A DNA stretch of 63,245 nt, the filler included, from Asterionella formosa (lineage: Eukaryota), in assembly GCA_002256025.1 (NCBI GenBank). It is 19 parts of 19 records of this genome, joined end to end, with 100 filler letters (N's around TTAATTAATTAA, not from the genome) between each part and the next. Parts side by side here need not be neighbours in the genome. Positions count along the whole stretch, not along the records: positions 1 to 3,247 come from NKIB01014322.1; 18 more parts are not named here. One strand, given 5' to 3'. Under the pieces are notes generated by a model. It worked only from the letters and a program-made list of their open reading frames with translations, was not told the DNA's origin and made no database searches. This document shows positions 1 through 62,854 of the stretch, in pieces. The position numbers and the translations under genes were made by a program. Within the stretch, counting starts at the first letter, position 1, and every line of letters begins with the position of its first letter.

Positions 1-867
1 ATACACCGTCAGTCAGGGGAGTTCGTGATCATTTCCGCGATGCGAAGATTTTATTCGCGTAATGAACAAGCAGTCTATTGTTGAATGGCTAAAAGTATGT
101 CATAGTAAGCTGTCAAATGACTTATCAAGATTCCATAGAAATATGAACCATGACAATTAGTGTGTACATAAAACTCACTACAAAATTGACGTAGAGGAAT
201 TTGTTGCATCTTGAAATGTTGTACCTTCTCCGAGAATACTGTCGCTCAGGCTTTCTCATCTATTTCTAAAAAACATAGAAAACCTTATCTAGTCAAAGTT
301 ATCAACAAGCTAATCATGGCGGACTCAACACTGTCGCTACTTTGGTCATATCTTCAAAACTGAGCAAATGACGACCAAAAACAACTTCCAGCGCCGATTT
401 TAACTTTTTGTTGTCAATACTAGTGCAAAAATTTTTATTATTGAACGATAATCTCTTCTATGTTAGTCTGAATACACATGCTAAATAGGAATTGTTCATT
501 GTCAATATTCGTGAAGATATTCAACTCCATAATTTCGTCATGGTCCAGATGGAATTGCTGTCTCATTGACCCTATACCACAGGCAGCTGTACTACAAACA
601 CAAATGGAAGTACTACCTGATGGTATCTGGTACCCAGTATTAAGTATGCCAAGCATATTCATTATGCATGCCAAGCATATATAATATACATCACTATATA
701 CATATGTTGTGGTACCAGCAGTTGGACGAATTAACATGTAATCCTGTAGGTCTGTCATTCCACTCGGCAGTAAAAGTCCACATAATACATAATATCGGCA
801 TTATATTTGGAATTGTCATGTGTATCCATGAATTACTTTTTGTCAAAAGTCGCTCCACAAATACGAA

Positions 868-2357
868 ATGTCTAGTTCTTCCAACTCATCTCAAAATTCA
901 TCCTCCTCTGAGGAGGGGGATGATAGCATCTTGCAGAGTTCAGGAGATAGTTCGTCAGATGATAGTGCTTCCTCTTCTGGGAAAAAAGGGGTAGATCCCA
1001 TTAACTTTTCCATCCTGCCATTGTCACCTGCAGGCGACACTCCAGCACGCACTGACGATTTTCCTCTTCCCCATGATGACACTCCTTGGTGCTGGGAACC
1101 GGACTCACCAGACTTTATCATACAGACAATGACTGATTATACCTTAGCTTGTCGCAAGGCTGTCAAGAAGATTTGGCCAAATGCTGAATTTACATTTGGT
1201 ATGTGCTCTTATCATGCCTGGAATGAATGGTTAAAGAAGCATAGAGGAAAGTTCAAGAAATACGACAAAAACAAGAAGAGAATGGGTGAAGACTTCGAGG
1301 CGTATAAAAGAAGTCCCTGGATACAGCTAGTTCCAATCCTCCGCGATTTGATGATTTTCAAGTGGATCAACACATACAAGGAAAAGAAAGTTGCATCTGC
1401 ATGGTTAAAACAATGGGGTCCCACCATTCACACCAGAATTGAATTGAACACCAGTTCCAATCTACTTCGTGGTGGTTTGCCTGCACACAACAACAATTCA
1501 GAGGGCATCAACAGTGGCGATAAATCATTCTTTGACCACAGGAAGCCTTTAACGGCTAACTTCATTCATAACATGTCGTACATGCTAGAGGATCGTTCCA
1601 AAGGGGATCTATCGCTCATTTTGCCCCACCTTACACTCATCGGTTCACTCGATAAATTTCTACAAGTCTATTTATAAGCTTCTTGAGAAAGCCAAAATGG
1701 AGAAGCTACATTTCTCACAGTGACATTTGATTTCAAGTGTGATTCAATTAGAATCGGAGAGGATTAATTGTTGATTGCAACATCGTCATTTGTGGACCTA
1801 AATATTATGTCCTCTATGCAAACAATGCAGTCCCAGAATACTGCAACTGCATTCTCACAGCACAGTCAACTATCCCAATCCAGAAAGAGATATCTTTATA
1901 TCGGGAACACAGAATCAGTTACTGCACTAACTGTTATGCAATTGATAAAGAAGAACAAAATCCATGATGAGTACAAGCGCCTTCTCCGAAATCCTGAACA
2001 GTATTATGCTAACCACACATTTGATGATGTCCTTTCCCTCACCCGCAGGTTTCACCTTATTGAACCTATTGTGTCCAAGAGTGAAAACGATGATGTTGCT
2101 CTAACATACTTTTTAGGAATTTTGGGAAGGTGTGGATTGGGACCCATTTCGATCAATAGCTTGAAAGCAATGGGCAATGAAGGCCTCATATCGTGCCATT
2201 GTCACGCGTATTTAGCAAATGCGTGGTGTAACATGCATGTGCTTTTGCATTTGACTGTGGAATTATTTCTACCTTACGAAAGACAATGCATCCAAAGCCT
2301 AGTATTAAGAATAAAGGTTCTGGACAAATCAAAATTCGAAACGAGGAGGTAACTTAG
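868..2357 (+). pseudogene. Mutator/MULE transposase, C-terminal half (second Asp, CxxH, catalytic Glu, SWIM zinc finger), frameshifted
   Basis: QTMTDYTLACRKAVKKIWPNAEFTFGMCSYH matches the MULE D...vfP...CxxH pattern; HNNNSEGINSGDK matches NNxxExxNxxxK; CHCHAYLANAWC-(frameshift at about 2230)-HACAFAF is SWIM; further frameshifts at about 1610-1700. Confidence 0.8.
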
Positions 2358-2454
2358 ATATTAAAGGATGATAACATGGAGGTAGCTTAGATATGAAAGG
2401 ATGACAAATTTAGAAAAGCACAAGTAGTAGTGCTGATTATAAAAGTTATCAATA

Positions 2455-3247
2455 CTAGATAGGAATATCATTAGTTTTCCTATATCTAACGAGTTCTTCC
2501 AGGGCAGACTTAATTGACGCAAATATGAATCTTTGCCCTTTGTGGTGTGTTCATGGCTTATCACTCCATATGCAATCGTTTTTGTTTGTTGAGCCAAGTT
2601 GGTTGTAATAAGTGGAAAAACGCCGCTTCCTTCTTGTGTCAGTCTGTAAGATGCATCAGCAGCAAAGAAGATTGGATTGCCCCAGAATTGCTGTGTGTAC
2701 GCATTCGAAAAAAATTCTCGGTTGTTAGTACAGCTACCAAAGAGTCGTCTTCTGGTCGACAGTCTATGCCAAGTAGGTAGGTACATCGAATGTTGGGTGA
2801 AATTAAAGATATTTTCCTTCTTATACAATTCAAGGACAGCAGCGATTACTCCCCAGTTATTGCCTTGACCATTTATTAGCCCAACCGATTTATTGCGTAA
2901 GCGAGTGAGTTGTCGTTTCATGCACTTTTTCAATTTTTCATCAACAGCCAGGAATTCCTTTTGCCCTAGACTCAGCAATGTAACGTGCTGGTTTCATGTT
3001 CAATTTATTCAGGGAAGTAATTAACACAGACTGATAGTATTTGTGAATACGTTTTCTTATGCCATCCTTGACAACATTATTTTGTGTGTGTTTTAGGTCA
3101 CCAATCTCAATTGTGGTCAAATTTGTTTTGGTATTGATTAATTCCCGAATTACAAAGGGACATTTACAGGAATGGAAAATGTGCATCTTTTCTTTGTAAC
3201 TCTAATGCCATCACCTCTAAGGTATGGACGATCTTTTGATATCCACA
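2455..3247 (-). pseudogene. Mutator/MULE transposase, N-terminal half (Cys/His DNA-binding-like region plus first catalytic Asp), frameshifted and cut by the contig end
   Basis: CKCPFVIRELINTKTNLTTIEIGDLKH; FFAADASYRLTQEGSGVFPLITTNLAQQTKTIAYGVISHE is the MULE first-Asp strand set; after a frameshift it reads HKGQRFIFASIKSALEELVRYRKTNDIPI*. Confidence 0.75.
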
Positions 3248-3347
3248 NNNNNNNNNNNNNNNNNNNNNNNNNNNNNNNNNNNNNNNNNNNNTTAATTAAT
3301 TAANNNNNNNNNNNNNNNNNNNNNNNNNNNNNNNNNNNNNNNNNNNN
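3248..3347. other. Artificial contig linker (N44-TTAATTAATTAA-N44); first of 18, the others at about 6592, 9936, 13279, 16620, 19960, 23298, 26636, 29974, 33310, 36644, 39978, 43308, 46635, 49961, 53287, 56607 and 59929
   Basis: Identical 100-nt spacer with stops in all six frames; contig lengths fall from 3247 to about 3217. Confidence 0.98.
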
Positions 3348-6300
3348 ACTCCACAGAAAACCACTTACTACTCAACAACAGAATGGGAAAAGCTTTCATA
3401 TGAGGAGCGTGATCGAGTCCGAAAGGAACGCGACAAGAAAGGAGAGCAAGGCGGATCGAAGCGTACCATTTCCGGGATGACAACAAAGCAACATGCTTCC
3501 GCCATCATCAGTTCTATCAAGGCAGCAGCACTTAGCGACTCCGGAACATGCGATGACGACCAGTCGGAAACGCCGAAGAAGTCAAACGCCGGCAATTCTT
3601 TTGGTGGGCGTGAAAGCGCAAAACGAAGCAAAAGCGATCGACTTGAGATAGCGGCATATCGTTCTTCTCATCGGAAGCCGCTCCCGCCTCACCAATTATC
3701 GATATCTGCACTTACACAACTAACCCAGCGCGCTGCGAAATGTGAACTTGACACTCACGCTGACACCTGTGCTCTTGGCTGTAATTTTGTACCTCTTTAC
3801 TTTACAGGACATGCCTGCGATGTCATTCCATACAACGCAGGTGTGGCCAGCGGAAGTTACAGAACCAACGGTTCTACACTGACACCATTTTCGGGAAATG
3901 CAAATCACTGACTAACAACACATGTGCTCAAATCTTTGCAAATGAAGCGTATTTCGTAAAAGCGTACCCGATGGAGAGGAAGTCTGGCGCGGGTCTGGAG
4001 CTCCGACAATTCATTTGTGATTACAGAGCACCTGAGTACCTCACGTCTGACGGGGCGTCCGAACAGACTGGACCGAAAACGGAATTCATTAAGAACGTAA
4101 GGAAGTATGGGATTGAGCATCACGTGAGCGAAACTAAACAGCATCGACAGAATCGAGCGGAGTCAGTCATTCGCGAAGTGAAGAAGCGATGATTTCGACA
4201 AATGATGAAGCGTCGGGTTCTGAAGCGTTTGTGGGATTACGGAATTGTGTGGGTGTTTGAAACAATGTCTCTCACTGCTAACTCATCATTTGCGCTGGAA
4301 GGTCGGACTCCTATAGAGCAGATCACAGGCGAGACACCCAACATATCCGAATACTTGGATTTCGGGTTCTACGATTGGGTGTGGTACAAGGATAATGCAG
4401 GGGTCGGCGAAAACATGTTCGGGCGCTGGCTTGGTGTGTCTCACCGAGTTGGTAACCTAATGTCGTATTGGATTCTAACCATTGCTTGTCGCGTTATCTC
4501 ACGCACTACAGTGCAGCGTATCACTCACCTGGAACTGACAACTAGCGAGGTCAACGACAGATGCAAGGAGTACAATGAGAGGATAAAGGAAATCATGCGT
4601 GACAACAACCACCAAAATGCAAGCGACGAGGAGGAGCAACAATTGCAGGATTGGGATGAATACTCGGATCTACAGGACAATTCAGTATTCGGCGAAGAGA
4701 TAAACAATGTTGTGAGCGATCACCAAATACCAGATGCCGATGACACTTTCACGCCCGATATTTTCGAGGATACTTACCTCAACAAAGAGATAGCGATAGC
4801 GAGGGGCGCTGGAGATGACAACGACGGTGTTCAATTTGGCAGAGTCACCAAGAGATTGCGCTATAGGTAAGGCTCACGAAAATCCTTTGCTTGACACGAG
4901 AGAGTATGAGGTCGAGTTCTTTGACGGACACTCAGAGGCATTGTCCTCTAATCTTATTGCTCAGAATTTGTTTTCACAGATAGACGAGGAGGGCGAACAA
5001 CACGTACTTCTCGACGACATTATCGATCATAGGCGGAATGCGACAGCACTCGACAAAGAGGACGAGTTCATCACAATGTCTAACGGTGTCAAGCGGCGGA
5101 GACAGACGACTCAAGGGTGGCAACTCCTGTGCCAATGGAGGGACGGGAGTACCACTTGGGTCGCACTAAAGGATATGAAGCAATCGTACCCCATACATGT
5201 GGCGGAGTACTCAATTGCTAATCGTATTGATGACGAGGCGGCGTTCGCGTGGTGGGTGCCGAATATTCTAAAGAAACGGTACCGAGTCTTAGCAAAGGTA
5301 AAGTCTAAGTATTGGCAGTGAACTCACAAATACGGTATACGGATACCGAAATCCGTCGAAGAGGCGTTAGCGATTGATAAAGCCAATGGCAACACATTAT
5401 GGTGAGATGCCATCTGCAAGGAAATGAAAAATGTGCGACCGGCATTTGAAAAGTGGGAAAAGCGAGAGGGAGACCTTCCGCCAGGGTACCAAAAGATAAG
5501 GTGTCATTTCGTGTTCGACATCAAAATGGGCGAAAACTTTCGGCGTAAGGCGAGACTAGTTGCTGACAGCAGCCGGACTGAAACGCCCGCAGCCCTGACG
5601 TATTTGTCAGTTGTGTCGAGGGACTCAGTGCGCATCGCCTTATTGGTTGCTTCATTGAACGACTTACAACTTCTTGCTTGCGATATTCAAAACGCTTATC
5701 TAACCGCAGATTGCAGAGAGAAAATTTACATAATTGCAGGGTCGGAATTTGGGTCGGAAGCGGGAGCTACCATGGTGGTAAAGAAAGCGCTGTATGGGCT
5801 CAAATCTAGCGGTGCGGCATTCAGAGCGCATCTTGCAGAAACCCTCCATGATTTGGGTTACTTGCCCACGAAAGGGGACCCTGATGTATGGATTCGACCG
5901 GAGGTAAAACCGGATGGGTTTGAGTATTACGAAATGATTCTTGTATATGTTGATGACATTCTTTGCATTTCAGCGCAACCTAGAGCGACTATGAGCGGGA
6001 TACAGTCGACCTTCAAATTGAAGGACGATAAAGTCGAGAAGCCGGAAAATTACCTGGGAGCCCAGGTAATGCAGAAAATAGTCGGCGGAGTTGAGTGTTG
6101 GGCAATGACTTCAGAGCAGTATGTCAAGGCGGCCATCGCCAATGTAGAGTTCAAACTTGACGAGTCGGGTCAGCGGCTTCCAACGAGGTGCACTACCCCA
6201 TTGCAGGGGAATTATAGACCGGAACTGGATATTTCTGCCGAACTCAAGATTGAAGGCGTGAGATACTACCAGGAATTGATCGGCGTGCTCCGCTGGGCAG

Positions 6301-6591
6301 TGGAGCTTGGATGAATAGACATTGCTATGGAAGTTTCTATGTTATCTACTCACCTAGCGTTGCTGAGAAGTGGACACTTACAGCAGGTATATCACATGTT
6401 CGGATATTTGAAAGCGAAACCCAAGAGGACGTTGATCTTTGATCCGACACACACCCCGATATAAACGAATCCAGGTTTGTTAAATGCGATTGGCACGACT
6501 TTTACAGGGGAGCGCAGGAGTCTATTCCAGGGGACGCACCCGAGCCCAGAGGTAATGTTGTAACTACTCACTGTTTTGTGGATGCGGATCA
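3348..6591 (+). mobile_element. Ty1/Copia LTR retrotransposon internal region (diatom CoDi-like), degenerate: gag end, protease, integrase, RT, start of RNase H
   Basis: Protease ELDTHADTC (about 3745); integrase FYTDT..LTSDGASEQ..QNRAESVIREVK; RT CDIQNAYL, KALYGLKSSG, LVYVDDIL; RNase H FVDADH at the contig end; INT-before-RT order; premature TGA stops and a deletion near 3840. Confidence 0.95.
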
Positions 6592-8015
6592 NNNNNNNNN
6601 NNNNNNNNNNNNNNNNNNNNNNNNNNNNNNNNNNNTTAATTAATTAANNNNNNNNNNNNNNNNNNNNNNNNNNNNNNNNNNNNNNNNNNNNGTTTGTTAT
6701 GTGGAATAGAATGCACTACCGGCATGAATTTCTTAACAATACCTGAACATTTCCTCTTCTTCAAAAAGTGTGTATAACATACATCTCTGTATGTCTAGTA
6801 ACTTTTTGAAGGAACATTCAAAACCCTACCAGTTTGTATGATTAGATAAAATATACAAGACTTAACAGGAATTCGAATACTCGGTACTGTGAAACTGTAC
6901 CTATTACTACGCTGATCTTTATTTAGAATGACACCAGGTATGACGAATTCCATCGGCTTGTCAGGAAAAAAGTTTCCCAATTTTGGCGGTGCTTCTCAAA
7001 TGGGGCCGTAATGGTGCAAAGAAGCATGTTCCTCTTTTCTTCTGTATCAATACCAGCACCAACAATATTAGTAAAAATACAGGGATCATTTGAAACGCCC
7101 CAATAATGGAGAAGTTTATCAACATCATTGGACTCATTTCGACAACCATTGTTGCTGTACGACATTGGAATCAGCTATTGAATAATTCGGAATGGCAAGA
7201 ACATATGTGTGGGACAAGCTACACTACGTATATATTTGCTATATAAATATAGCGGTCACTTTGTTGAAAGTATAGCTATGTGTGGCAATGGGTTAGCCGA
7301 TAAAGAGATTTCTTAAAACAATGGGATAGTACAATGCTATTAAGCAAAGTTACAATTGTTATTTCGAACCCCCTGCTATTCAAAGTTCATGTGGTGCTAC
7401 TATTTCCTGAATGTAATGAAGCTACTTCCTGATTAGTGATGTTGTGGCTCTAATTCTGCAGCATACAAACATGCTCGCCAATAGCTAGTCAATGAGAATG
7501 GAAGACCCATGATTAGTAAGGCCATGAGCAACAAACTGGGCCGCCATCTGTTCCATCTTAGCTTTGATCCACATCTCATCTTGAAAAACAGATTTGAAAT
7601 ACGGATCGATGTTCGCAATGGGCGAATTATGATCAAAAGGTACTATCTTCTTGATTTCGGTTGGAATTGGAATTAGAATTGGGTATTGCCTTCAATGCAT
7701 CATTCTCCAATTCTGTTGTATAAATTGACCAAAGCTTTTGATTTCGAGTAACAAACAAACAATCAAACTTCGCCAGCATATTTACCCATCAATATTGAGA
7801 CCATATCATTCGTTTTAGTAAGACTAAGATCATCGTCGTCCCACAAGAAGGTAGCTTTTAGGGGATTCAACAAACGCACATGGCTTGTAAGAAATTCGAT
7901 TACTGATATGCGAATGAAGAGATAATGACGAATACTACCGATACAAGAATTGGATCAAAGCATGTACCGGTAGAGCATTCAAATCGGAATGGCAACAAGG
8001 AACGCACCGTTGTTG

Positions 8016-8640: not shown

Positions 8641-10535
8641 TTCTCTCTTTACTCAGCTCAATGTATATTGTTCCTGTCCCACCCTTTTCTTCCTCTTTTC
8701 TGAATCTTGTGCCAAGCTTGTGCCAAGCGATGCCTTACTAATGTTCTGTCTCTCTCCCTGCTGTTAGTGTCATTGTGAACTCTCCGGCTATTCTGTTTGA
8801 TCGGTTTTATTTTCCTATGCATGCAGTTACAGTAACAATGAGAAGGAATGATTTGTTAGCTACTCATGTTACATTGACACAAGAACACACAATTCCATCG
8901 TATCCTCTTGCTTCACTTACCACAAATCAATGCAACTGAGGATGCATAAGTCTGTAATAGTAACTTGTCAGTAAGCCAAATTCTTGAATAAGTAAGTTTC
9001 GGGTATCCAATGTTGTCAAATAAAACTTACCGGTTCATTTTTGTCAGCTTAACTTTGAGAGAAGGTAAACGTTTTGTCAGGTTTGTTCCAACAGAAGTGA
9101 ATAGGTCCAACGAGCAACAAGAGCACTTACGCAATTTGGTTTTGTTTTACATTGGTGCTCCCCAACAAGCGAAACGAGCTGTTGAATCAACTGAGAAAAA
9201 AGGAAATGTGGCTGCGTTTAGTTGACAATTTGTTGTTGTGCTGCCTGCCTTCCAACGATTGTCATCCAAGTACCACATTGATGGCTTCATTACCTTAATC
9301 ATTCTCCATCCTTCGAAGGCGCAATGTGTCGAAGTCACAATTTTTTCGTTATGTATTGCGTAAACTTTCTTTTCTTTTAATGTGCTTTACTATGACGTAT
9401 CTTTTCATGAAGCAGCAGGCATTGTTTGTTAACATGACAGAACAATTTCAAAAATATATATGCCATGAATATAGTAATAAAATTTGTAAATATATAGATA
9501 TATATTAAGTGTTATACATTTATAAAATTCAAAGGCGCTCTCGATATGGAACATCTGATATGGTTGGGATGATCATACTTGCATATACATAATTCGAAAA
9601 TACTCAATGCACTATATGTCCATTGTTTTCCACGACTACGTGTACCGGTATTGTTTCTGAAATTTGTTTGCATCGATATTTTCTACGTCCGTTGAAACTA
9701 ATTATTTAGACCATTCAATTGGTGTAAGTCATAACCGCCAGGGTTTTGGTAGCAAATTGTTTAAGCCCCTTTTTTGGTTGGGAGCTCTTCATGTGTACCG
9801 GTACATCATATGACAATAACAATATATCATATATATATACAGAGTACCAGTAGCAGGTAGTAAGTGATATACTGGGGGTAGTCGGAGTAGTAAACTAGCA
9901 ACAGAACACCATATGTTCAGGACTGTTGCTACTGCNNNNNNNNNNNNNNNNNNNNNNNNNNNNNNNNNNNNNNNNNNNNTTAATTAATTAANNNNNNNNN
10001 NNNNNNNNNNNNNNNNNNNNNNNNNNNNNNNNNNNGCATTTGACCCTCTCTGGTTGGGTAATTCTTGTCTGGAATATTTTGGGAATTCCCATGCAACAAG
10101 TGGTGTTGCATATTTTGTTTTTATACTTTGTGTGGTTTCCTTCAATAGCAATAATTATAACAATAGCTTCAGAATTCTTCCTATTTTCCATTTGATATGA
10201 GAATTACCTGTACATATGCGCTTCAGTGGCCATCATCCAAGGTAGACAAATACTGTTTCCATTCTGCAAGTAATAAACTATGATGTGGTTGAAAGGGCAC
10301 AGACACATGTCTTGGGTTACATTATAGTAGAAAAGTGTCTACATAGCTTTGAACCATTCATCTATTCAGTGTTGGTTTGAAGTAAAACCAGTCCAGGGTA
10401 ACTTGGATTAGCCAACAACGTTAATGTATTGCATCAAGTTCAGCCCCCACATGTTGTCCTTGCGCTTGCTGAGTCGATGGCCTCAAGTTTTTGATTTCTA
10501 TCTGATGAGTGTAGCTCCTGTGGATGTGAGGCTCA

Positions 10536-13278
10536 TCAGGACAAACTTTGCGACGTTACCACGCTGTAGAGGAGCAAGTAGGCAGTTCGTTGATTGCGAT
10601 CACTCTTGAGAAGACTTTCCTTGTTGGAGGGGAAGACAACCCCATCATCAAAGTGAACCCACCTTGACTCATTTCCATTGGTAACTCGAACTGCATCAGT
10701 TGTGTAGTGCCCTGATGATGCCGTGCTGCCTAAATGGTGAACAATGCTACAAATTGCATAGTTAGCAGAAACGTCAACGGTGTCATGCTCTGACTTGGTA
10801 CCGTACTGGGCAAGGGAAAGGGAGTCGTTGAGAAAAACAGGTGCCTTGATCTTTTGAATTATCATTTCTGCTCGATGGGCCTTTGTTGGTGCTGGTAGAC
10901 CTCCTTTTTCTTCATCGACGACTTCGACATTCTTCATGGCTGTTTCACTCTTGTCATTTCGTCTTTCGGTTGACGTTGTTTGGGCATTGCGTATGCGTTG
11001 TTTCTCAACAACAATGAAGCGTTTGAGGTGAACAAGAAGTGCTTTAGGTCTGGAATAATGAAATGAATGAAGTGAGTATTTACCTTGAGGATACCAGTTG
11101 CGAGATTCGCATTGCTTCTGCACCCTACCTGTTCATAACAGCCAAAGTTTGAGTTGCGGTGGTGCCAATTTTGCAATGTTCACATATCACATCTCTCTTT
11201 TCAGGTGCAAAGAACTTTTTGAGACCGTTCTGAACACTCCACTTGACTTCTGCTGGTTCTTCTCTGTCACCCTTCTCATTAGCAATAGGCTCCTCAACTT
11301 CAATGGAGAGATGACGATACATTTCTTCCTTGGTTCTGCAGTTGAAGAGATCTGTACAGTTAGATGAGCACAACAGCTTATCGAATCGAGCCATTAAGTC
11401 ACGTACCTTTCGAAACCACATGAATCGCATACTAAGCAGACCTTTACATTGAGTCGAAAGAATTCATCGGTTGGCAAATTATCGGATGTATCTCTCTGTT
11501 TATCTCCTTTCTGTTCTTCTTCAAGTTCATCGTGAACACGATCAATCAGGTCACTCAGAAACTCGTGGGCATCACGTTGTTCATACCCAGTGAATTTGTC
11601 TGTTGCGGCGTCAATGGCGGTTTTGATGATCCGAGGTGTCATGGATGTGCCTTCTGGATTTTTCATCAACTTCCCGGCCACCGTCACGAGACTGTTGGCC
11701 AAGTCGCCACCGTGACCTGATAGCCTCGAAATCAAGCCAGATACGGTAAAGAGCATTTGAAGACTGCTATTTAAGTAGCACGTGTTTCCCATGTTGCGAA
11801 GGCCCTTCCAAAGGGGAGGACTGGCCGAAGGAAATGGAGACTTTGTAGCATTCGATACCACGGAGTTGGGACATTTCTTATTGTAAGGCACAAGGATGGA
11901 ATCCACCTTGCTATGGGTTTGGGACTCGCCACTATCGTCCAATAGGTCGTCATCTTTGAGACCAGGATCTCGTTGCACTCTATTCGTAGGCGACCAATGA
12001 CGCTTCAAGGCCGATCCAGGCCGCATCACAAGATAAGGCTTACTATAGCATTTGAAGTCCTCTTCGGTTTCAGTGTTCGTAGCCACAAGGAGGCGGTTAA
12101 CCTTACTCTCTTGAGCATCGATTGTAGGCGATGCAACCACGGTTTCTTTTGAGGATGTATGACCATGTTCTCTTGGAGAATAGAAATCGCTCTGAGGAGA
12201 CTTGGAAGGCGTGTGGATCCATTCCGTGTCCTGTCGGAGAGTCTTTTTTTTCTGTTCAGCTTTGAGAAAACCTTTGGCAACATTTCGGCCGAGACCATTA
12301 GCAATAGAGGATGACTTCATTCCGTGACTTCTTATTGGAAGTCGTGCGGTAAAGTAAGTCGTGAGGGGCTTAGTGCCTTTAGCATCAGAAGGAGAGAGTG
12401 ATTTCTCATCCGATGATTCCGAGATCTTCTGGTTGATGAGTATAACCGAAGGTGGCTTATTGAGGTCCACATCATCCTCGTCACGAAGGGTTGTACACAC
12501 ATGAGGAGACACAACGCGGTTAAACTTCGGCGTGGTTGTGCTTGGAGCGTCAAACAGTGCATCGTCGTCTGATTCGTCAAGAAAAGCCTTTCGCTGGATG
12601 CGTGCTTTCTTCTTGGGTTGTTTGAGCTTGACTGGAGAATCGTGGTCGAAATCCTCCTCATCGCCTTGTTCTTCTTGAGATTCCTCTGCAATTACCGTGG
12701 CTTCTTCATATTCCATGTTTGCGTTGTTTGAGTAACTATCTTCCTTTCGCACTTCCTCGTGTACTGGCGTTGTATCATTCTGTTCGCCCTCGTCATCTGA
12801 GGAGAAGTAGTTTGACGCAATTCTATTTGTTCCCCAAGTCTGGTGGCGTTTCTGTAGCTTAGTCTTGTATTGACGACGACCATAAACTCCTCTGGTTTTG
12901 GTTTGCGTGATTGGATCTGGTTGTTTCGCTTCCGGGGGTTCCATCTTGGTCTGCAGCTTTGTCCATCGCCTTTGACAAAAGTCTCGAAAGGTGGAGAAGC
13001 CAACAGTTCCGTGGTGGTATTCCATACAAAACTTGGAAGTTCTGAGTCGCACACTAGTCCCTATGAATTCCAGCTCTTCCACAGACTTCCAGCGAATCTT
13101 CCAGTTGGCATTATGTCCAGCGAAGATGGCGGTATTGTCGGCCGTGACCGGCACATCACCACTGACTTCCTTTTCAGCAATGTTGCGATCCGACTCCCTT
13201 ACTGTGATGAACTCAAATAAAGCGCCGTTTGCTAATTCTTTCTTTCCCATGATGGAAGAAGCAATTAAATCTTTCCAA
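10536..13278 (-). CDS. Ubiquitin-specific protease (peptidase C19, USP37/26/29-like layout); 3 exons, introns 11406-11336 and 11128-11050; 5' end may be truncated
   Basis: Cys box GLRNMGNTCYLNSSLQ, QRDAHEFL, CxxC pairs, His box HHLGSTASSGHYTTD and WVHFDD; GT-AG introns join the three ORFs in frame. Confidence 0.93.
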
Positions 13279-30073: not shown

Positions 30074-33000
30074 TCGGGGCAGTGGTCGTCGGCGACTTGG
30101 TTGGGGTATTTGTTGTTGGTGTCTTGGTCGGGGCAATGGTTGTTGGTGCCTTGGTCAGGGCGTTCGTTGTCGGTACCTTTGTGAGGGAAATGGTTGTCGG
30201 TGTATTTGCTGGTGGAATGGTTGGACGAATGGTTGGCGTTGTTATTGGCGATGAAAAGAAAACGGGATCAACACAGGCATTACCGACACCAGCGGGATCA
30301 TCAATGCAAGTACAATTCACAGACCAATAGCCCTTCGTCGCAGGCGCGAAAGTAACTATCCCATTCTTCGTGGGCTCTTGAGGAGATTGGACATACCCCG
30401 ATGGAAGACTCGACGAGACTGACACCTTGTATTGGTACTCATAGATCGGAATAGGATACATGAATGTATTAGTTGCTTTGTAACGCCCACCTGCGTAGTC
30501 AGTGGGTGGAGTGGGAATCAATAAAATATAGATAGTCACAGGTCCAGTGGAGCCAGTCCCGATTACGACGGTTGCTGGTGTCTTGCCCTTGACCTTCCAG
30601 TATCGACGTTCACCGGTAGAAGGAGTGTGAACAACGACCATGCTATTGTAAAATCGAAGATCATTGTCACACCCTTTTTGCTGGACAGGGAGAGCCGGAG
30701 GGTTTGTATTAATCTGAAATCCCATACCATCACTCCAAGCAACGTCAATCATAACAAACCGGTTTGCAGCGACGCCATTCATAGTCAAGCAGTTCCAACC
30801 AAATGGGCCAGGTCGCAGTGCCATTGGACCACGTACCCAATTGGCGAGAGTTCCAGACGTAGGACTCAAGTAGACTGTCGTCTTACGATTTTCCAGAGTA
30901 GTGTTTGAGGGGAGAGGTGGATTAGTGTTCTTGAGAGTGTTGTCAAAATCTGATGCCTCGGCTATAATAAAGACATCACCCATCAGAAAATCCCAAGTGC
31001 GATAATGAGCAACAAAGATGCTCCACACATCGCCCAAATCCATGCCTTCGCCTTCCACGTACATTCGAACCATAGACAACACTCCATTATAATATCCTGC
31101 AGTGTACTTTTCGTTGCTGTACATTTGTCCTGCTAGATGCGGCATGCCTGCATGCTCTGCTAGAAACCACCAAAGGATCCAAGAGTTGTACAAGTGACCA
31201 ACACTGATTGCACCACTAAAGCTCAGTTCCGGGGTGAGAAAGTGGGCATTCGCAGTGGCCGAAGAAGGTGGATTTTCAAATCCCAAAGGGTAGGAAATGG
31301 CGAGTGGTAATGAAGCGTAGATGACGTTTGTACCTGGAAAGGTTAAGGAAGGACCAGAGCTAGCACCTGATTCTGACAGGAACCAACTCATTGATGATGA
31401 GTACGTTAAATATAGAGTTTGTTGAAACTCGTGGAACATCTCATGAGCAATATATTGATAGCCAGGACCACCGTGCTTGTAAAACATGTCTCGGAGGTCA
31501 AACACTTCATCCGAAGACTTTGCCACCCACTTGGGTACATAGTCGGTGTTGTACAGGGGGAAATCCCAGAGATTGTTGTTTTGGTTTAAGTACCGACAAG
31601 GATTGTTCCAAACTGAGGCAGCAAATTTTGGAACTTGACTGGTATTCTTGAAATAACGATAGGGCTCCATTGGAAAAGATATCATATCGCTTTCAAAGTA
31701 GTACTTTTCCCAAAGGTACGTTTGTAGCTTCTTGTGTTGAAAGAAGTATTCTACATCTAGGACCGGATGGAAACTCTTGTGCTCATAGTCTGGCGTACCT
31801 TCTGGGATATCGTAGAAGATTCCAGCTACAAAGGGATTCTCCTTTGGAGCCACCCACAAAGTCGCAAACGGTCCAGATCCATAGGTCTGACCTCCAGTTG
31901 TTGGCTCAGTGACATAAAGGCGAATTCTTGAATCGCATCCATTCCTATCATAGTAGAGGTCGAGGTCACGAGAGACTTTCATCGCAGCTGGATCATTCGG
32001 ATTGGTGCATTTGGCTCCCACTCGGCGAATTTGACTTGCACTTAGGGTACCTGAGTAGACTCGTACATCAAATAATTCACCCGGAAAATTACCCAGCGTA
32101 AGATCATGTGTATTAGTAGGCGAAGGCGATTCTACCCCCACAACTCGAGTTATGGCGTTCCCAGCCACAAATAGTGTTGTTGGTGTAATAACGACAGAAG
32201 TACAGGTCCAAATCTTCAATGGTCGAGGCAAAATGTAACGCTTTTGGTTGATGGAAATAACTTGATAAGAACCAGATGTATCAATAGTGACATTCATTCC
32301 TAAACCACTCATAATTGTGCCCACAAGAGGCATATCCATGTACAGGTAATGAAGCTTGAATGCGATCGTATAACCCGAGCTGATTCCATTGTACAGGGGT
32401 GACGTCACTTCAAAGTAGTATGTCAATTGGCGCGATGTAAAGTCAACTTTGGATATGAAAAAATTCTCATCATGGGGATGTTTCGTGTTTGCGTTGTTGG
32501 ACGGTGTCCAGTAGTATTCCGCGTAGGTCAATAGATTGGCGAACTTGGATATATCACGCGCAGTAACGGAAATAGGGACATGAAAGACAATACCGTTGGC
32601 ATAGTCCCCGCTACCTCCATGAAAGTCTTCTGTATTACAGACGCAATTCCCAATTTTCAAACACTTGGAAATCGGATCGATACGGCACTTGCCTTTTGAT
32701 CGAGAAGATGGAAGAAAAATCCATTGGCAATCTTCTCGAAACTCATTGGTGCAATCGCGATAATTCAATTTATTGGTGCAAAAGTCATTTGTTAACGGAA
32801 ACACATTCTTGGCATTTTTAATCACCGGTCTAGAGCTAAAGGGCGATGCCAGAACACTAAAGTCGTCGCCTGCCGCATTGCACGACGTTGGCGCATATGT
32901 TGGTTGTGGATAAAGGGAGGGTGGTGCAACAGTCGGGGCCGGAGTCAGAGGTCTAGTTGCGGTGAAGACAACAGAGTCCTGGCGACTGCCCAATACGTCG

Positions 33001-33309
33001 CTGACAAATTGGTCATTGTACACCAAGAGATCGTCGATGTTTGTTGGCTTGTTCCCGAAAAACACAGCGAAGTATCCGTTACGAAGGCCGTCTCCATAGC
33101 TGTCGAACATATTGAATCGGTACGTGGCTCCGAGAGTGACAGGAATGATTTGAGTTACATTCTTGAGACCGTCGCTGTATCCAGATCCGCTTGCAATGAT
33201 GACACTGTTGGCTTCGTCGGCGATGTTCCAAGAGTTATCCGAGGCGAAGTTGTCGAAGCGGATCTGGACAGTAACTGATACCGCATCGCTTCCAGAAGCA
33301 AGGGATGAT
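30074..33309 (-). CDS. Large extracellular-type protein (partial at both ends): Cys-rich region, LamG/concanavalin-like segment, zincin HExxH domain, Thr/Pro stalk
   Basis: Uninterrupted ORF of more than 1000 aa; FPGELFDVRVYSGTLSASQIR (LamG-like end); YIAHEMFHEFQ..WFLSESGA; PT(K)APTT repeats. Confidence 0.8.
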
Positions 33310-46295: not shown

Positions 46296-46889
46296 CACTC
46301 GAAGTATCAGGTGCTAAATAATTTATGTAAAAGAATAAAAGAATTCATATTGGATGCTGACAATACCAACGGAAAAGATGATTGTTGATGTGTGCTTCAT
46401 ATATCCAGTTGCTGAAACAACATTGTTTCGATTTTCTCCATCAATTCATGGTGCCTGATTGCACTCAAAAATAAATTTGCAGTCGATACCAGACATTAAC
46501 CAAAATAGATATTTAGTCCAGTACTTTAAAGTTGATATGAAATGATTTGTTCCATACCTGTTTAGTTGATCATTAGGGTTGATTGTTGCTTGTATCATGT
46601 ATTATGTCGCAATATTTCTCGAGCTCCATTCTGCNNNNNNNNNNNNNNNNNNNNNNNNNNNNNNNNNNNNNNNNNNNNTTAATTAATTAANNNNNNNNNN
46701 NNNNNNNNNNNNNNNNNNNNNNNNNNNNNNNNNNGAATTATAAATACAATTTCTTTTTTCCTGTCCCGCCCTATCCTAGCAGGTGAACATCACACTTGAA
46801 GTTGGTCTCGCTGGCCGTATCCCAAATCTGTAATCACACTTTCATCTGCGGCGCTGTTCATTTTCAATAATAGCTGTTTATAGAACATC

Positions 46890-48005
46890 ATGACGAATGA
46901 AGAAGCCAATAATGGGCTCATAGAGCTTATCAAAAAGATCGAGTCGTCGTTGTTGCCAGCCATTGATGAACATGTAAATTCCGATAAATTCAATGCCAAG
47001 AAGGACGGTCTAGACTTTCTTCATGTCAAGAACTCGCTGTTACTTACTTATTTGATTGAGCTAGTGCTGTATAAGAAAGCAAAAAATGAGGGGGGGGACG
47101 TCGAGTCCAACCGATTGATCGAGTTAAAGACCGCCCTAGAAAAAGTTCGACCGCTGGAGAAGAAGATGCGATACCAGCTGGAAAAGCTTTTGTCGGCAAA
47201 CACAGATAGTGCCACGTTTGCTTCAGGGGATCCACTCTCTTTTCGGCCCAATCTTGAAGCAATGAAAGACGAGGGAGATGAAAGTGATGGGCTTTCCTCG
47301 GATGACAGTGACGGCGATGGTGGGGAACTTCGAATTGAAGGGGAGCCCGATGATGATGCGATGAATTTTGACGATGATTTGGAAGCTGCAAAGGCTACTA
47401 TTCAGCTTGCAACGAAAAACTCGAAAAATAAGGAGAAAGTTGAAGAAAATGAAGGGGTCTATAGAGCCCCGCGATTGGCGGCGATGCCGTACAAACCCGA
47501 GATTGACTATACAGAGAAGGACAAGAGATTAAAGCGAAAAATGCGAACAACAGAATTAGCCCAAGCTCTCAAAGAGCAGTTCAGTGAAGCTCCAGAACAA
47601 GACGACGTCCATGGTGGGTCCGCATACGGTAAACAGAAAGAAGCCGCTCGTCGCCTAGCTCAGCGCGAGAAAGAACGGACCGATTTCGAAGAAGGAGCGA
47701 TGATGCGTCTTACAATTTCTCGAAAGGATAAGAAGGAACAAAAGAGAATGATGCGAGAGGAATCGAGTAACTTATCAGCTATATCTGATCTTGGAAACAT
47801 TGTACGGGGAGTGCGTGAAGCGTTTGGAGACGATGGCGAATCTCGTGGCCGCAAACGAAACGGGCGCGAGGATATCTTTGAGGACGATGAACCCCAAGCA
47901 AAGGGGCGTAAGAAGAAAGGAGGCGTGGAAGCCAAAAATACCTTCCAAAAGGCGCTCTTTGCAGGAAGCGACAGCAAGGCCAAAAAGAAAAAGAGTAGGC
48001 GATAA
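46890..48005 (+). CDS. NGDN: Neuroguidin/Lcp5-like SSU processome protein (Sas10/Utp3/C1D domain)
   Basis: GLDFLHVKNSLLLTYL, LEKVRPLEKKMRYQLEKLL, DPLSFRPN, GVYRAPRL, FEEGAMMRL; intact 371-aa ORF. Confidence 0.88.
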   Translation: MTNEEANNGLIELIKKIESSLLPAIDEHVNSDKFNAKKDGLDFLHVKNSLLLTYLIELVLYKKAKNEGGDVESNRLIELKTALEKVRPLEKKMRYQLEKLLSANTDSATFASGDPLSFRPNLEAMKDEGDESDGLSSDDSDGDGGELRIEGEPDDDAMNFDDDLEAAKATIQLATKNSKNKEKVEENEGVYRAPRLAAMPYKPEIDYTEKDKRLKRKMRTTELAQALKEQFSEAPEQDDVHGGSAYGKQKEAARRLAQREKERTDFEEGAMMRLTISRKDKKEQKRMMREESSNLSAISDLGNIVRGVREAFGDDGESRGRKRNGREDIFEDDEPQAKGRKKKGGVEAKNTFQKALFAGSDSKAKKKKSRR

Positions 48006-61023: not shown

Positions 61024-61237
61024 CAATCTCTCCCGTTCGTTCACAAATTAGATGATTTACCGGTAATTTAAATTTTAGATATAGATTCAACAGATAATAT
61101 CAATATACTTTATTGGTCGCTCACCTGATCGAGTACACAGCTTTCGCTACACTTTTGACCTTTTCATCAACACACATCAGCATACTACTTATAAACCCTC
61201 CACTTAGAGTGCTCTTACGAAACAACATTAAAGCAAA

Positions 61238-62854
61238 ATGATGTTTCAACAAGTCTGTCGTCACAAGAAGGAAGGAGAGCTCCGAAGCGGGACAAATAAA
61301 TCAATTTCACCACGAGAACTGTCGCAAGATGCATGCTTGACGACATTTCGCCGCTGCTATGCTTCGGTCGGATTCTGTGCCATGCTTGTTGGAATATGTT
61401 GTCTTTTGGTGGCCCATCAAATTGACTGTAACCAATATCTGGTCCTGGCTATATCATTGTATGATACGAATAGCACCTCCGTCCACCTCAATCCCCTTCA
61501 TCTCATCGAAGACGCTGCAACTGTGACCGCCATACCTGTCAAGCCGAATCAAGGCAATGACGTTGCTGGGCGGATCATTCCGCATCCCAAGGACCGGAAG
61601 GACCGCTTCCCGTCCGTAGATGCTCGAATCCGATTGTACATGTCCAATTGGTTTCAAGCACCGTGCTCCGATACTACCAGGCTCAACTATGTGATGGAGG
61701 TTGACAAGGATGCCTTTCCAATCTTGAGATATACTGGTGACGTCGATGGGACCGAACAAACAGTGTACAGCAGTGTTGTTCGCGCAGATACAAAAATACT
61801 CCTGGAAAATGAAACCATGTCTGATTGTGGAAGGCCTAGGGTTGTTGGAGATCCTGGATGGGACAAACTAGAGAAATTCCCAAGGACCGAATCACGCATT
61901 AAGCAACGAGGGAATATGTGGAACTATTGTAGAGACTCGATTGAAATCTTGAACATAACCAGGACACTGAATGCCAAGGGAAGCCTTCCAGATTCTCCTC
62001 TTATCCTCCAATTTGGAGATCTTGAAACGTTGTCTCGTTCGATTCCAGTATTTGCCAAGTTTCGAGGAAGAATTTCTACGACCGAACTCCAACGCGTGAC
62101 GAATGCATCCACATGTGCAGATCGACCTTATGCCACAACCATGTCAATTACGAACCCAGGGTATGCTCCCATTATATGGAACTTAAATAGTGTCCGACAC
62201 TTTGGATGGTTTGAACGAGCCAGAAACCAGGATATTCCTTGGCATGAGAAAAAGCTTGGGGCGCTCTGGAGAGGTTTCATGACTGGCTTTATGGATATAT
62301 CTAAGAATGCAACTGAATTGGACCAGTGTTTGTCAAACCCACGATGCCGTTTCGTCTATGAGACTAAACTTCGAAACTCCAGCTTGATTGATGCGGCTCT
62401 AATTGGGGTTTACAGCCACTACAAGGGGGGTACATCCTGTAATGGTGTCCCATTGCGTGTTTCTCAACAGGCCACTCTGGAAGAAATTCAAAGCTACAAG
62501 GTGATTGTGTCACTAGAGGGAAATGATGTTAGTAGTGCCCTCAAGTGGAATTTGATGAGTAATTCTGTTGTCGTTATGCCACCACCAACAAAGACATCAT
62601 GGGCGATGGAAGAATTACTAGAACCTTGGGTACACTATATCCCTGTTCACGCAAATCTAAGTAATTTGGAAGAAATGATTCGCTGGGTTGGTGCTAACGA
62701 CAAGCATGCCCAACAAATAGCAGAACGTGCCACTTTATTCATCTTTGACTTGTGGATGTCTCCAGAAGCCAAAATTGACAATGAAGCTGTAAAATATGGG
62801 ATTGTAGACCGATACCGAAAGCTCTGGCGTTTGAAAGGGCAATCACTACTATAA
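61238..62854 (+). CDS. Glycosyltransferase family 90 (CAP10-like) type II membrane protein
   Basis: N-terminal TM helix; IPWHEKKLGALWRG; YKVIVSLEGNDVSSALKW..SNSVVVMP..LEPWVHYIPV..AQQIAE; intact 538-aa ORF. Confidence 0.92.
   Translation: MMFQQVCRHKKEGELRSGTNKSISPRELSQDACLTTFRRCYASVGFCAMLVGICCLLVAHQIDCNQYLVLAISLYDTNSTSVHLNPLHLIEDAATVTAIPVKPNQGNDVAGRIIPHPKDRKDRFPSVDARIRLYMSNWFQAPCSDTTRLNYVMEVDKDAFPILRYTGDVDGTEQTVYSSVVRADTKILLENETMSDCGRPRVVGDPGWDKLEKFPRTESRIKQRGNMWNYCRDSIEILNITRTLNAKGSLPDSPLILQFGDLETLSRSIPVFAKFRGRISTTELQRVTNASTCADRPYATTMSITNPGYAPIIWNLNSVRHFGWFERARNQDIPWHEKKLGALWRGFMTGFMDISKNATELDQCLSNPRCRFVYETKLRNSSLIDAALIGVYSHYKGGTSCNGVPLRVSQQATLEEIQSYKVIVSLEGNDVSSALKWNLMSNSVVVMPPPTKTSWAMEELLEPWVHYIPVHANLSNLEEMIRWVGANDKHAQQIAERATLFIFDLWMSPEAKIDNEAVKYGIVDRYRKLWRLKGQSLL

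Follow-up and report, generated by a model that had tools for sequence, protein, structure and literature searches.

The window analysed here is a stretch of 63,245 bases from Asterionella formosa (assembly GCA_002256025.1), made up of 19 unrelated contigs of 3,217-3,247 bases that are arranged in near-descending order of size and joined by artificial linkers, and it does not represent a stretch of chromosome. The element copy that concerns us occupies window 1-3247, which is one small unplaced contig (NKIB01014322.1). Judged from its sequence, this contig is probably a decayed copy of a high-copy Mutator-like element (MULE) of a eukaryotic alga in which the transposase is encoded by two separate, convergent genes, a two-chain variant of the enzyme. 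The minus-strand gene (the N-half) carries the first Asp of the Asp-Asp-Glu (DDE) triad and the plus-strand gene (the C-half) carries the second Asp and the Glu. The coordinates of these and of other features are given in Table 1.

Homology to one-chain transposases shows that a single catalytic domain of the MULE type is divided between the two open reading frames (ORFs), which are complementary and do not overlap. With the C-half as query, an exhaustive HMMER search returned 154 homologues at E<=1e-3. The initial annotation had described the halves as complementary, and this is borne out by two one-chain relatives, P0129 (782 aa) and P0080 (859 aa), with which both halves align in order. The window C-half aligns inside P0129 at residues 351-530 and inside P0080 at residues 430-598, and the N-half relative P0001 matches P0129 residues 77-344 (E 3e-23) and the N-terminal part of P0080 (E 2e-21). 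The corresponding residues in P0129 are D288, D385, C417/H420 and E515. In alignment A9 all of the N-halves (9/9) cover the N-terminal part of the one-chain proteins over its full length and end about 9 residues past helix 1. Beyond this end the one-chain proteins read ..DFDFREDNDLFPH.. (including ..REDNDLFPH..), and it is here that the homology of the C-half (..APREDAFHLP..) starts. The homology of the N-half gene to the one-chain transposases covers their N-terminal 270-330 residues, the strand bearing the first Asp included.

Domain profiles point in the same direction at low scores. A comparison with the Pfam families MULE and SWIM had been proposed in the initial annotation; the window's five ORF pieces gave no MULE or SWIM match at E<=1 (0/5), but relatives of the two halves hit complementary parts of PF10551 (MULE), below threshold. 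At E<=0.1 this profile is matched by 7/9 N-halves (best E 0.0016, 19.3 bits) and by 2/31 C-halves (best E 0.028), and one-chain P0129 matches it at E 0.012; all MULE matches lie under the cut-off of 27.6 bits. The C-termini of the N-halves match from PF10551 positions 1-4 to positions 52-61 of 99 (7/9), and residues 35-76 of the C-half P0019 match positions 56-96. PF04434 (SWIM) is found in 7/31 C-halves at E<=0.1, the best at 6.9e-4 with 19.5 bits against a cut-off of 19.6, and PF04500 (FLYWCH) in 2/9 N-halves (E 0.011 and 0.017). Among the named clusters of the ESM Atlas, those closest to both halves are MULE, SWIM, ZSWIM1-3 RNaseH-like, FLYWCH and FAR1, with scores of up to 0.93, and are leads only.

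The position of the split is kept in diverged relatives, and the split is thus a property of the family and not a one-off. The N-half set consists of nine full-length proteins that are 27-57% identical to the reference P0162, and all nine stop 65-67 residues past the invariant first Asp. These proteins lie on contigs of 1.5 to 7.4 kb from several sources, and the shared end is therefore not explained by contig ends. The stop of the window N-half (TAG at 2457-2455) agrees with that of the relatives. N-halves of the P0230 type (362 aa) are found on 11 contigs of just 1.2-1.9 kb; this would fit a short separate transcript.

The C-half set consists of 40 hits of at least 379 aa that cover the region of the second Asp. 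In 36/40 of these the match starts no more than about 100 residues further in than it does in the window ORF. The four exceptions are the one-chain proteins P0080 and P0129, P0087 (which has an unrelated N-terminus) and P0100. Thirty-one long C-halves were chosen for closer comparison: D, C, H and E are all present in 31/31, the position of the second Asp ranges from residue 37 to residue 190 (median 80), and 28/31 begin with Met. The leaders are dissimilar in sequence but rich in Asp, Glu and Ser. A single colinear ORF in other copies had been named in advance as a finding that would overturn the split. Two distant relatives (P0080 and P0129) do have one but the split clade does not, and the one-chain relatives are distant from the window C-half (E 1e-6 to 1e-12) and did not turn up in the runs containing the window's family.

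The motifs and the convergent coordinates reported in the initial annotation are correct; the two frames lie tail to tail, with 85-97 nt separating their ends. To follow this junction in other copies, contigs of two DNA runs (X1 and X2) and two RNA runs (X20 and X21) were aligned to the element contig at 85% likeness; most of the Logan contigs aligned are unitigs of 150-300 nt. Run X20 stems from another study, and one of its contigs, with a depth of 5.13, connects 2371 with 2426 through 19 letters, which corresponds to the window sequence with one unit of the 33-nt tandem repeat removed. No other X20 contig falls in the bin 2399-2507 (5.13 x 82/109 gives the listed depth of 3.86), and this one is seen again at 2537 and 2545. 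The contig runs from 2371 or before to at least 2545 and thus spans the interval from the end of the C-half to the coding end of the N-half. Depth over 2399-2507 is present in all four runs. The number of tandem units varies among copies of the element, with the X20 contig lacking the second unit and an X2 contig having an additional one.

Further pairs of N- and C-halves come from contigs of identical length. The length is 5,075 nt for the contigs of N-half P0162 and C-half P0188, and 26,878 nt for those of P0168/P0169 and P0191. The equal contig sizes suggest that the members of these pairs share contigs.

Within the window the N-half reads IAYGVISHE after FFAADASYRL, followed by FIFASIKSALEEL and the stop. 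Residues 127-384 of P0162 align to window 3245-2470, and the identity to P0001 is 47% across 135 residues. There are five frameshifts, near 3175, 2945, 2773, 2709 and 2545. Position 3247 is the contig end and is followed by the N runs and the TTAATTAATTAA linker; because the contig stops there, approximately the first 126 codons of the N-half are missing, as is the right end of the element.

The C-half is represented by two ORFs, 868-1677 and 1768-2352. Its intact relative P0185 (498 aa) is 90% identical over window 928-2229 and continues to 2368 in other frames. Measured against P0185, the reading frame of the window copy is shifted twice at about 1605-1690 and again near 2230 and 2330, and it contains a stop at 1765-1767. 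The leader has no counterpart in the one-chain relatives, and the homology to P0129 begins at residue 55 of the window C-half. The CxCx8CxH pattern is recognizable in P0185 and P0188. No N-half coding sequence was found within 1-867 by tblastn with P0162. Locus L005 matches window 224-834 at 84% and 663-1367 at 92%.

Differences between C-half copies are biased towards the third codon position, as counts in two aligned pairs show. Comparison of the intact C-half exon 1 of loci L001 and L002 gave 4, 6 and 25 differences at codon positions 1, 2 and 3 (289 of each), and comparison of the window with locus L004 gave 13, 13 and 28 (about 395 of each). In L001 (at about 956-1040) and L002 (at about 921-1000) a few codons with stops among them directly follow ..CYSHYK and break the C-half ORF, which continues beyond them. 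The 288-aa members of cluster P0004 all end at this interruption, which is probably a conserved short intron with no equivalent in the window's subfamily.

The element is very abundant in DNA run X1, in which 10,649 contig pieces aligned to it, 2,898 of them at 99% or more. The summed contig depth in X1 is 155,000-836,000 over 1-654 as against 40,000-187,000 over the genes, and in X2 positions 1-654 are likewise several-fold deeper than the genes. Positions 1-654 are either a separate high-copy repeat or an end region common to non-autonomous copies. X1 also contains internal-deletion joints with 2-12 filler letters (for example 1217>3121 and 1295>2593), each of them a single contig from one run. 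Deletions with filler letters are the usual trace of cut-and-paste elements, as in non-autonomous derivatives. Loose ends at 121-125 and 305 have the appearance of breakpoints only, and we rejected them as small indels relative to the window.

The polyA library X21 covers 1-436 and 873-3247, has zero depth over 437-872, and has contigs that continue 255 nt beyond the window start. Part of 437-872 is among the highest-copy DNA in X1, and carry-over of DNA into X21 is thus unlikely. The boundary at 872/873 hints weakly at a start of the C-half transcript close to its ATG.

The fold was examined with an AlphaFold2 model of one-chain P0129 built from alignment A10, which places both halves correctly. 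Alignments A8 and A11, in which the N-halves were misplaced along the one-chain proteins (about 12% identity), were set aside, and an earlier model from alignment A9 was unusable, with a mean predicted local distance difference test score (pLDDT) of 39. The model from A10 has a mean pLDDT of 66.9, and residues 380-770 reach 80-95. The predicted order is strands at 300-309 and 312-320, a helix at 325-349, a low-confidence loop, a strand at 379-382, Asp385 and the helix of Glu515. In the model this order is RNase H-like and the split site lies in the loop between helix 1 and strand 4. Residues 371-559 match the IS256-family ISCth4 transposase with Z scores of 6.3 (153 residues aligned, root-mean-square deviation (rmsd) 5.0) and 6.0, and Foldseek found ISCth4 at E 0.031 (prob 0.80). 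Residues 22-120 match AFT2 with a Z score of 5.7 (77 aligned, rmsd 3.9) and AtWRKY18 with a Z score of 4.7. Profiles of both halves searched against the sequences of solved structures gave nothing relevant.

Taken together, the data suggest the following organization. The N-half gene would encode a protein of approximately 340-420 aa with a DNA-binding finger of the WRKY/FLYWCH type, strands 1-3 with the first Asp, and helix 1. The C-half gene would encode a protein of approximately 430-550 aa that starts with its own Met and a disordered acidic and Ser-rich leader and adds the rest of the fold, namely strand 4 with the second Asp, the CxxH motif, the Glu helix and a C-terminal SWIM-like finger. 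We propose that the N and C proteins associate, with strand 1 of the former pairing with strand 4 of the latter to give a single DDE site, and that both genes would be required for transposition. The arrangement could have arisen by a single fission event in the flexible loop between helix 1 and strand 4, and the genes are probably driven from the two ends of the element, as in MuDR. The wider proposition, that marine and freshwater algae harbour a clade of Mutator-like elements with a naturally split DDE transposase that arose by one fission, has been kept to about 27% identity and is still multiplying, we regard as evenly balanced between true and false. Within such a clade the terminal repeats possibly drive the convergent genes, so that the subunits are made in step.

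A number of observations weigh against a two-chain transposase or narrow its scope. In the window's own copy both genes are defunct, as had been said of it from its frameshifts in the initial annotation, and versions free of exactly these indels are found among the contigs of the public runs. All Pfam matches of the two halves are sub-threshold. The N-terminal part of the catalytic core (residues 260-350) is poor in the P0129 model, with a pLDDT of 33-54, and structural Z scores of about 6 are only middling, which agrees with a MULE without proving it. The X20 and X21 data are contigs rather than reads, in which strand and transcript ends are not visible. The search for N-half homologues was word-seeded and length-limited, and its 15 hits are no gauge of family size. 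Members of the Mutator superfamily have long terminal inverted repeats (TIRs) and a target-site duplication (TSD) of 8-11 bp. No TIRs were found in 1-3247 or 1-900 beyond pairs of 12-18 nt at 78-92% complementarity, and neither a TIR nor a TSD was found in this contig, which lacks the right end of the element; that the two genes share one element is therefore presumed.

The layout in other copies weighs on the same side. L004, a decayed metagenome copy that is 91.5% identical, diverges from the window right after 2372, and its last 89 nt have only chance matches of 8-14 nt to the element contig. In the diverged locus L001 (6,246 nt) the C-half gene is followed 40 nt on by a convergent DUF6824 ORF, which could be a host gene or a further gene of the element, and no N-half was found in the 4.6 kb downstream of this C-half, which has only 86 nt of sequence upstream of it. 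The convergent layout is established for the window's subfamily only. The initial annotation had asked whether other copies keep the convergent layout: within this subfamily the X20 contig carries the junction, and L001 and L004 depart from it. Profile scans of genome contigs with the N-half and then the C-half, and of viral contigs with the N-half, each gave 0 confirmed loci, and a scan of metagenome contigs gave five loci, none of them with an N-half.

Among the other explanations, the one that deserves most attention is that both genes are conserved and yet one or both are regulatory, as a repressor or a catalytic remnant, while one-chain MULE transposases move the elements in trans. One-chain relatives do exist, the C-half gene of L001 lacks a neighbouring N-half, and truncated transposases act as repressors in other superfamilies. 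A pure regulator, however, would not need catalytic residues, and these are the residues that are kept: the D of the N-halves is invariant in 9/9, and D, C, H and E of the C-halves in 31/31, at identities down to about 22-30%. The one-chain relatives found are, moreover, distant and unseen in the runs with the window's family. We therefore consider a purely regulatory role for either gene unlikely.

It is very improbable that the layout is a local accident, whether an inversion, a misassembly of a repeat or a tail-to-tail meeting of two elements that were truncated independently. The contig, an unplaced fragment of 3.2 kb, belongs to a repeat of very high copy number and ends within the N-half, L004 leaves the window sequence right after the C-half stop, and the Logan contigs are mostly short unitigs, all of which could favour an accident. 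A local accident cannot account for a stop and a start at the breakpoint that are conserved across many contigs and sources, and the same junction is present in the X20 contig of another study, with all four runs deep across 2399-2507. Hardly any more credit can be given to a single chain after all, restored by trans-splicing of transcripts (as the initial annotation had allowed) or by rearrangement of DNA before expression. GTATTG directly follows the TAG of the N-half and is readable as a splice donor. Against this, the stop of the N-half is conserved, as are the C-half Met and a leader of about 30-180 residues ahead of the one-chain homology, which would be needless for a spliced-in exon; the 362-aa N-halves recur on their 11 small contigs; and no strand-changing joint was seen in the two RNA libraries among the 15 of 40 joints shown. 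Trans-splicing is thus unsupported, and two proteins encoded by two genes remain the preferred explanation.

The order D..D..E with C/DxxH after the second Asp defines the Mutator motif. The two halves resemble MULEs (MuDR/MURA, Jittery, Hop and FAR1/FHY3 relatives) and their bacterial kin, the IS256 family, in this order and in the C..H after the second Asp, and probably also in an N-terminal finger of the WRKY/FLYWCH type and a SWIM-like C-terminal finger. They differ in that MULEs as described have D, D and E on one chain, whereas the present genes divide them, one protein having the first Asp and the other the second Asp and the Glu; to our knowledge all described MULEs carry the three catalytic residues on one chain. 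In maize MuDR, the genes mudrA and mudrB converge and each is read inward from a terminal repeat, but MURA alone bears D, D and E and mudrB lies outside the catalytic domain. Whereas the second gene of MuDR is non-catalytic, the second gene here would hold a third of the catalytic fold together with a DNA-binding finger.

The available text of a survey of MULEs lists MuDR of maize as a two-gene element, gives one or two ORFs per clade, with a zinc finger, MutB or an unknown protein as the second, and assigns one ORF to the diatom MULEs it covers (PMC6446971). A MULE in the UMPS gene of Phaeodactylum tricornutum is described as 3,707 bp long, with a 9-bp TSD, TIRs of about 200 bp and two ORFs that are both transcribed; the transposase ORF is reported to have full MULE and SWIM domains by InterProScan and the second ORF, Phatr3_J50367, is read as UBR-type E3 ligase-like (10.1101/2023.01.02.522487). 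The size of this element is compatible with two genes of about 1.1 and 1.5 kb, but its published description sets it apart from the element discussed here. Two-ORF diatom MULEs may merit re-examination, as the second ORF has so far been read as an accessory gene.

Two-protein transposition machineries are familiar from RAG1/RAG2, ProtoRAG, PIF/Harbinger and Tn7 TnsA/TnsB, and the RAG1/RAG2-like genes are convergent. In contrast with the two genes described here, RAG1, the Harbinger DDE protein and TnsB each have a complete catalytic domain, and the partner adds another function or, in the case of TnsA, a separate active site. DDE transposases, retroviral integrases and RAG1 carry the catalytic triad on one chain. 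We know of no case in which one RNase H-like fold is shared between two genes, and a literature search turned up no paper in which a DDE core is split over two genes (matches to 'heteromeric transposase' were all Tn7). If the two-chain organization is correct, an RNase H-like fold can reassemble from fragments in vivo, with the loop between helix 1 and strand 4 as a permissive fission site. Control of transposition would then be built in through co-expression of two genes, the element would offer a template for split, inducible transposase tools, and it would be a clean case of gene fission in mobile elements.

Table 1. Predicted features of the element contig, of locus L001 and of the rest of the window (positions are those of the window unless L001 is named)
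Feature	Position	Strand	Remarks
N-half gene, 3' two thirds, decayed, cut by contig end	2455..3247	-	WRKY-like Cys/His finger, first Asp, stop
Codon of first catalytic Asp (FFAADASYRL)	2655..2657	-	Invariant in 9/9 N-half proteins
C-half gene, decayed copy	868..2370	+	Own Met, leader, second Asp, CxxH, Glu, SWIM-like finger
Leader: ATG at 868 and Ser/Asp/Glu-rich stretch	868..1047	+	Translation
Codon of second catalytic Asp (WCWEP..IIQTMTD)	1135..1137	+	Column invariant in 31/31 C-half proteins
C..H motif (MCSYH) after second Asp	1204..1215	+	C and H invariant in 31/31
Codon of catalytic Glu (NNNSEG)	1501..1503	+	Invariant in 31/31, 117-140 residues past second Asp
SWIM-like CxCx8C..H motif	2194..2238	+	Damaged here by nearby frameshift
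33-nt tandem duplication across C-half stop	2340..2405	+	Units 85% identical
Spacer between the two stop codons	2371..2454	.	Bridged by X20 contig
Region upstream of C-half gene	1..867	.	Common to other family copies; contains higher-copy repeat at about 1-654
1,419-aa DUF6824 ORF	L001 1695-5954	-	E 2.5e-15; converges on C-half gene
Artificial joint N44-TTAATTAATTAA-N44	3248..3347	.	Non-biological; 18 such linkers in window (others e.g. 6592-6691, 9936-10035)
UCH protease	11394-13277	-	E 1.5e-21
Sas10/Utp3	46884-48005	+	E 6.9e-8
Glycosyltransferase 90 (GT90)	61232-62854	+	E 1.3e-13

As the linkers between the contigs are artificial, any feature that spans one is an artefact. Searches with blastn and tblastx found no second copy of the element in the 63-kb window, and an Rfam scan of the window gave 0 matches. 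One open frame of 1,078 aa spans the entire contig 30075-33308 and has no Pfam match at E<=1e-5. The contig at 3348-6591 holds a fragment of a Copia-type retroelement, with RVT_2 (PF07727, E 2.9e-18) at 5406-6314 and, judged by eye, integrase-like ORFs upstream of it. The UCH protease, Sas10/Utp3 and GT90 fragments of Table 1 are likewise ordinary eukaryotic content.

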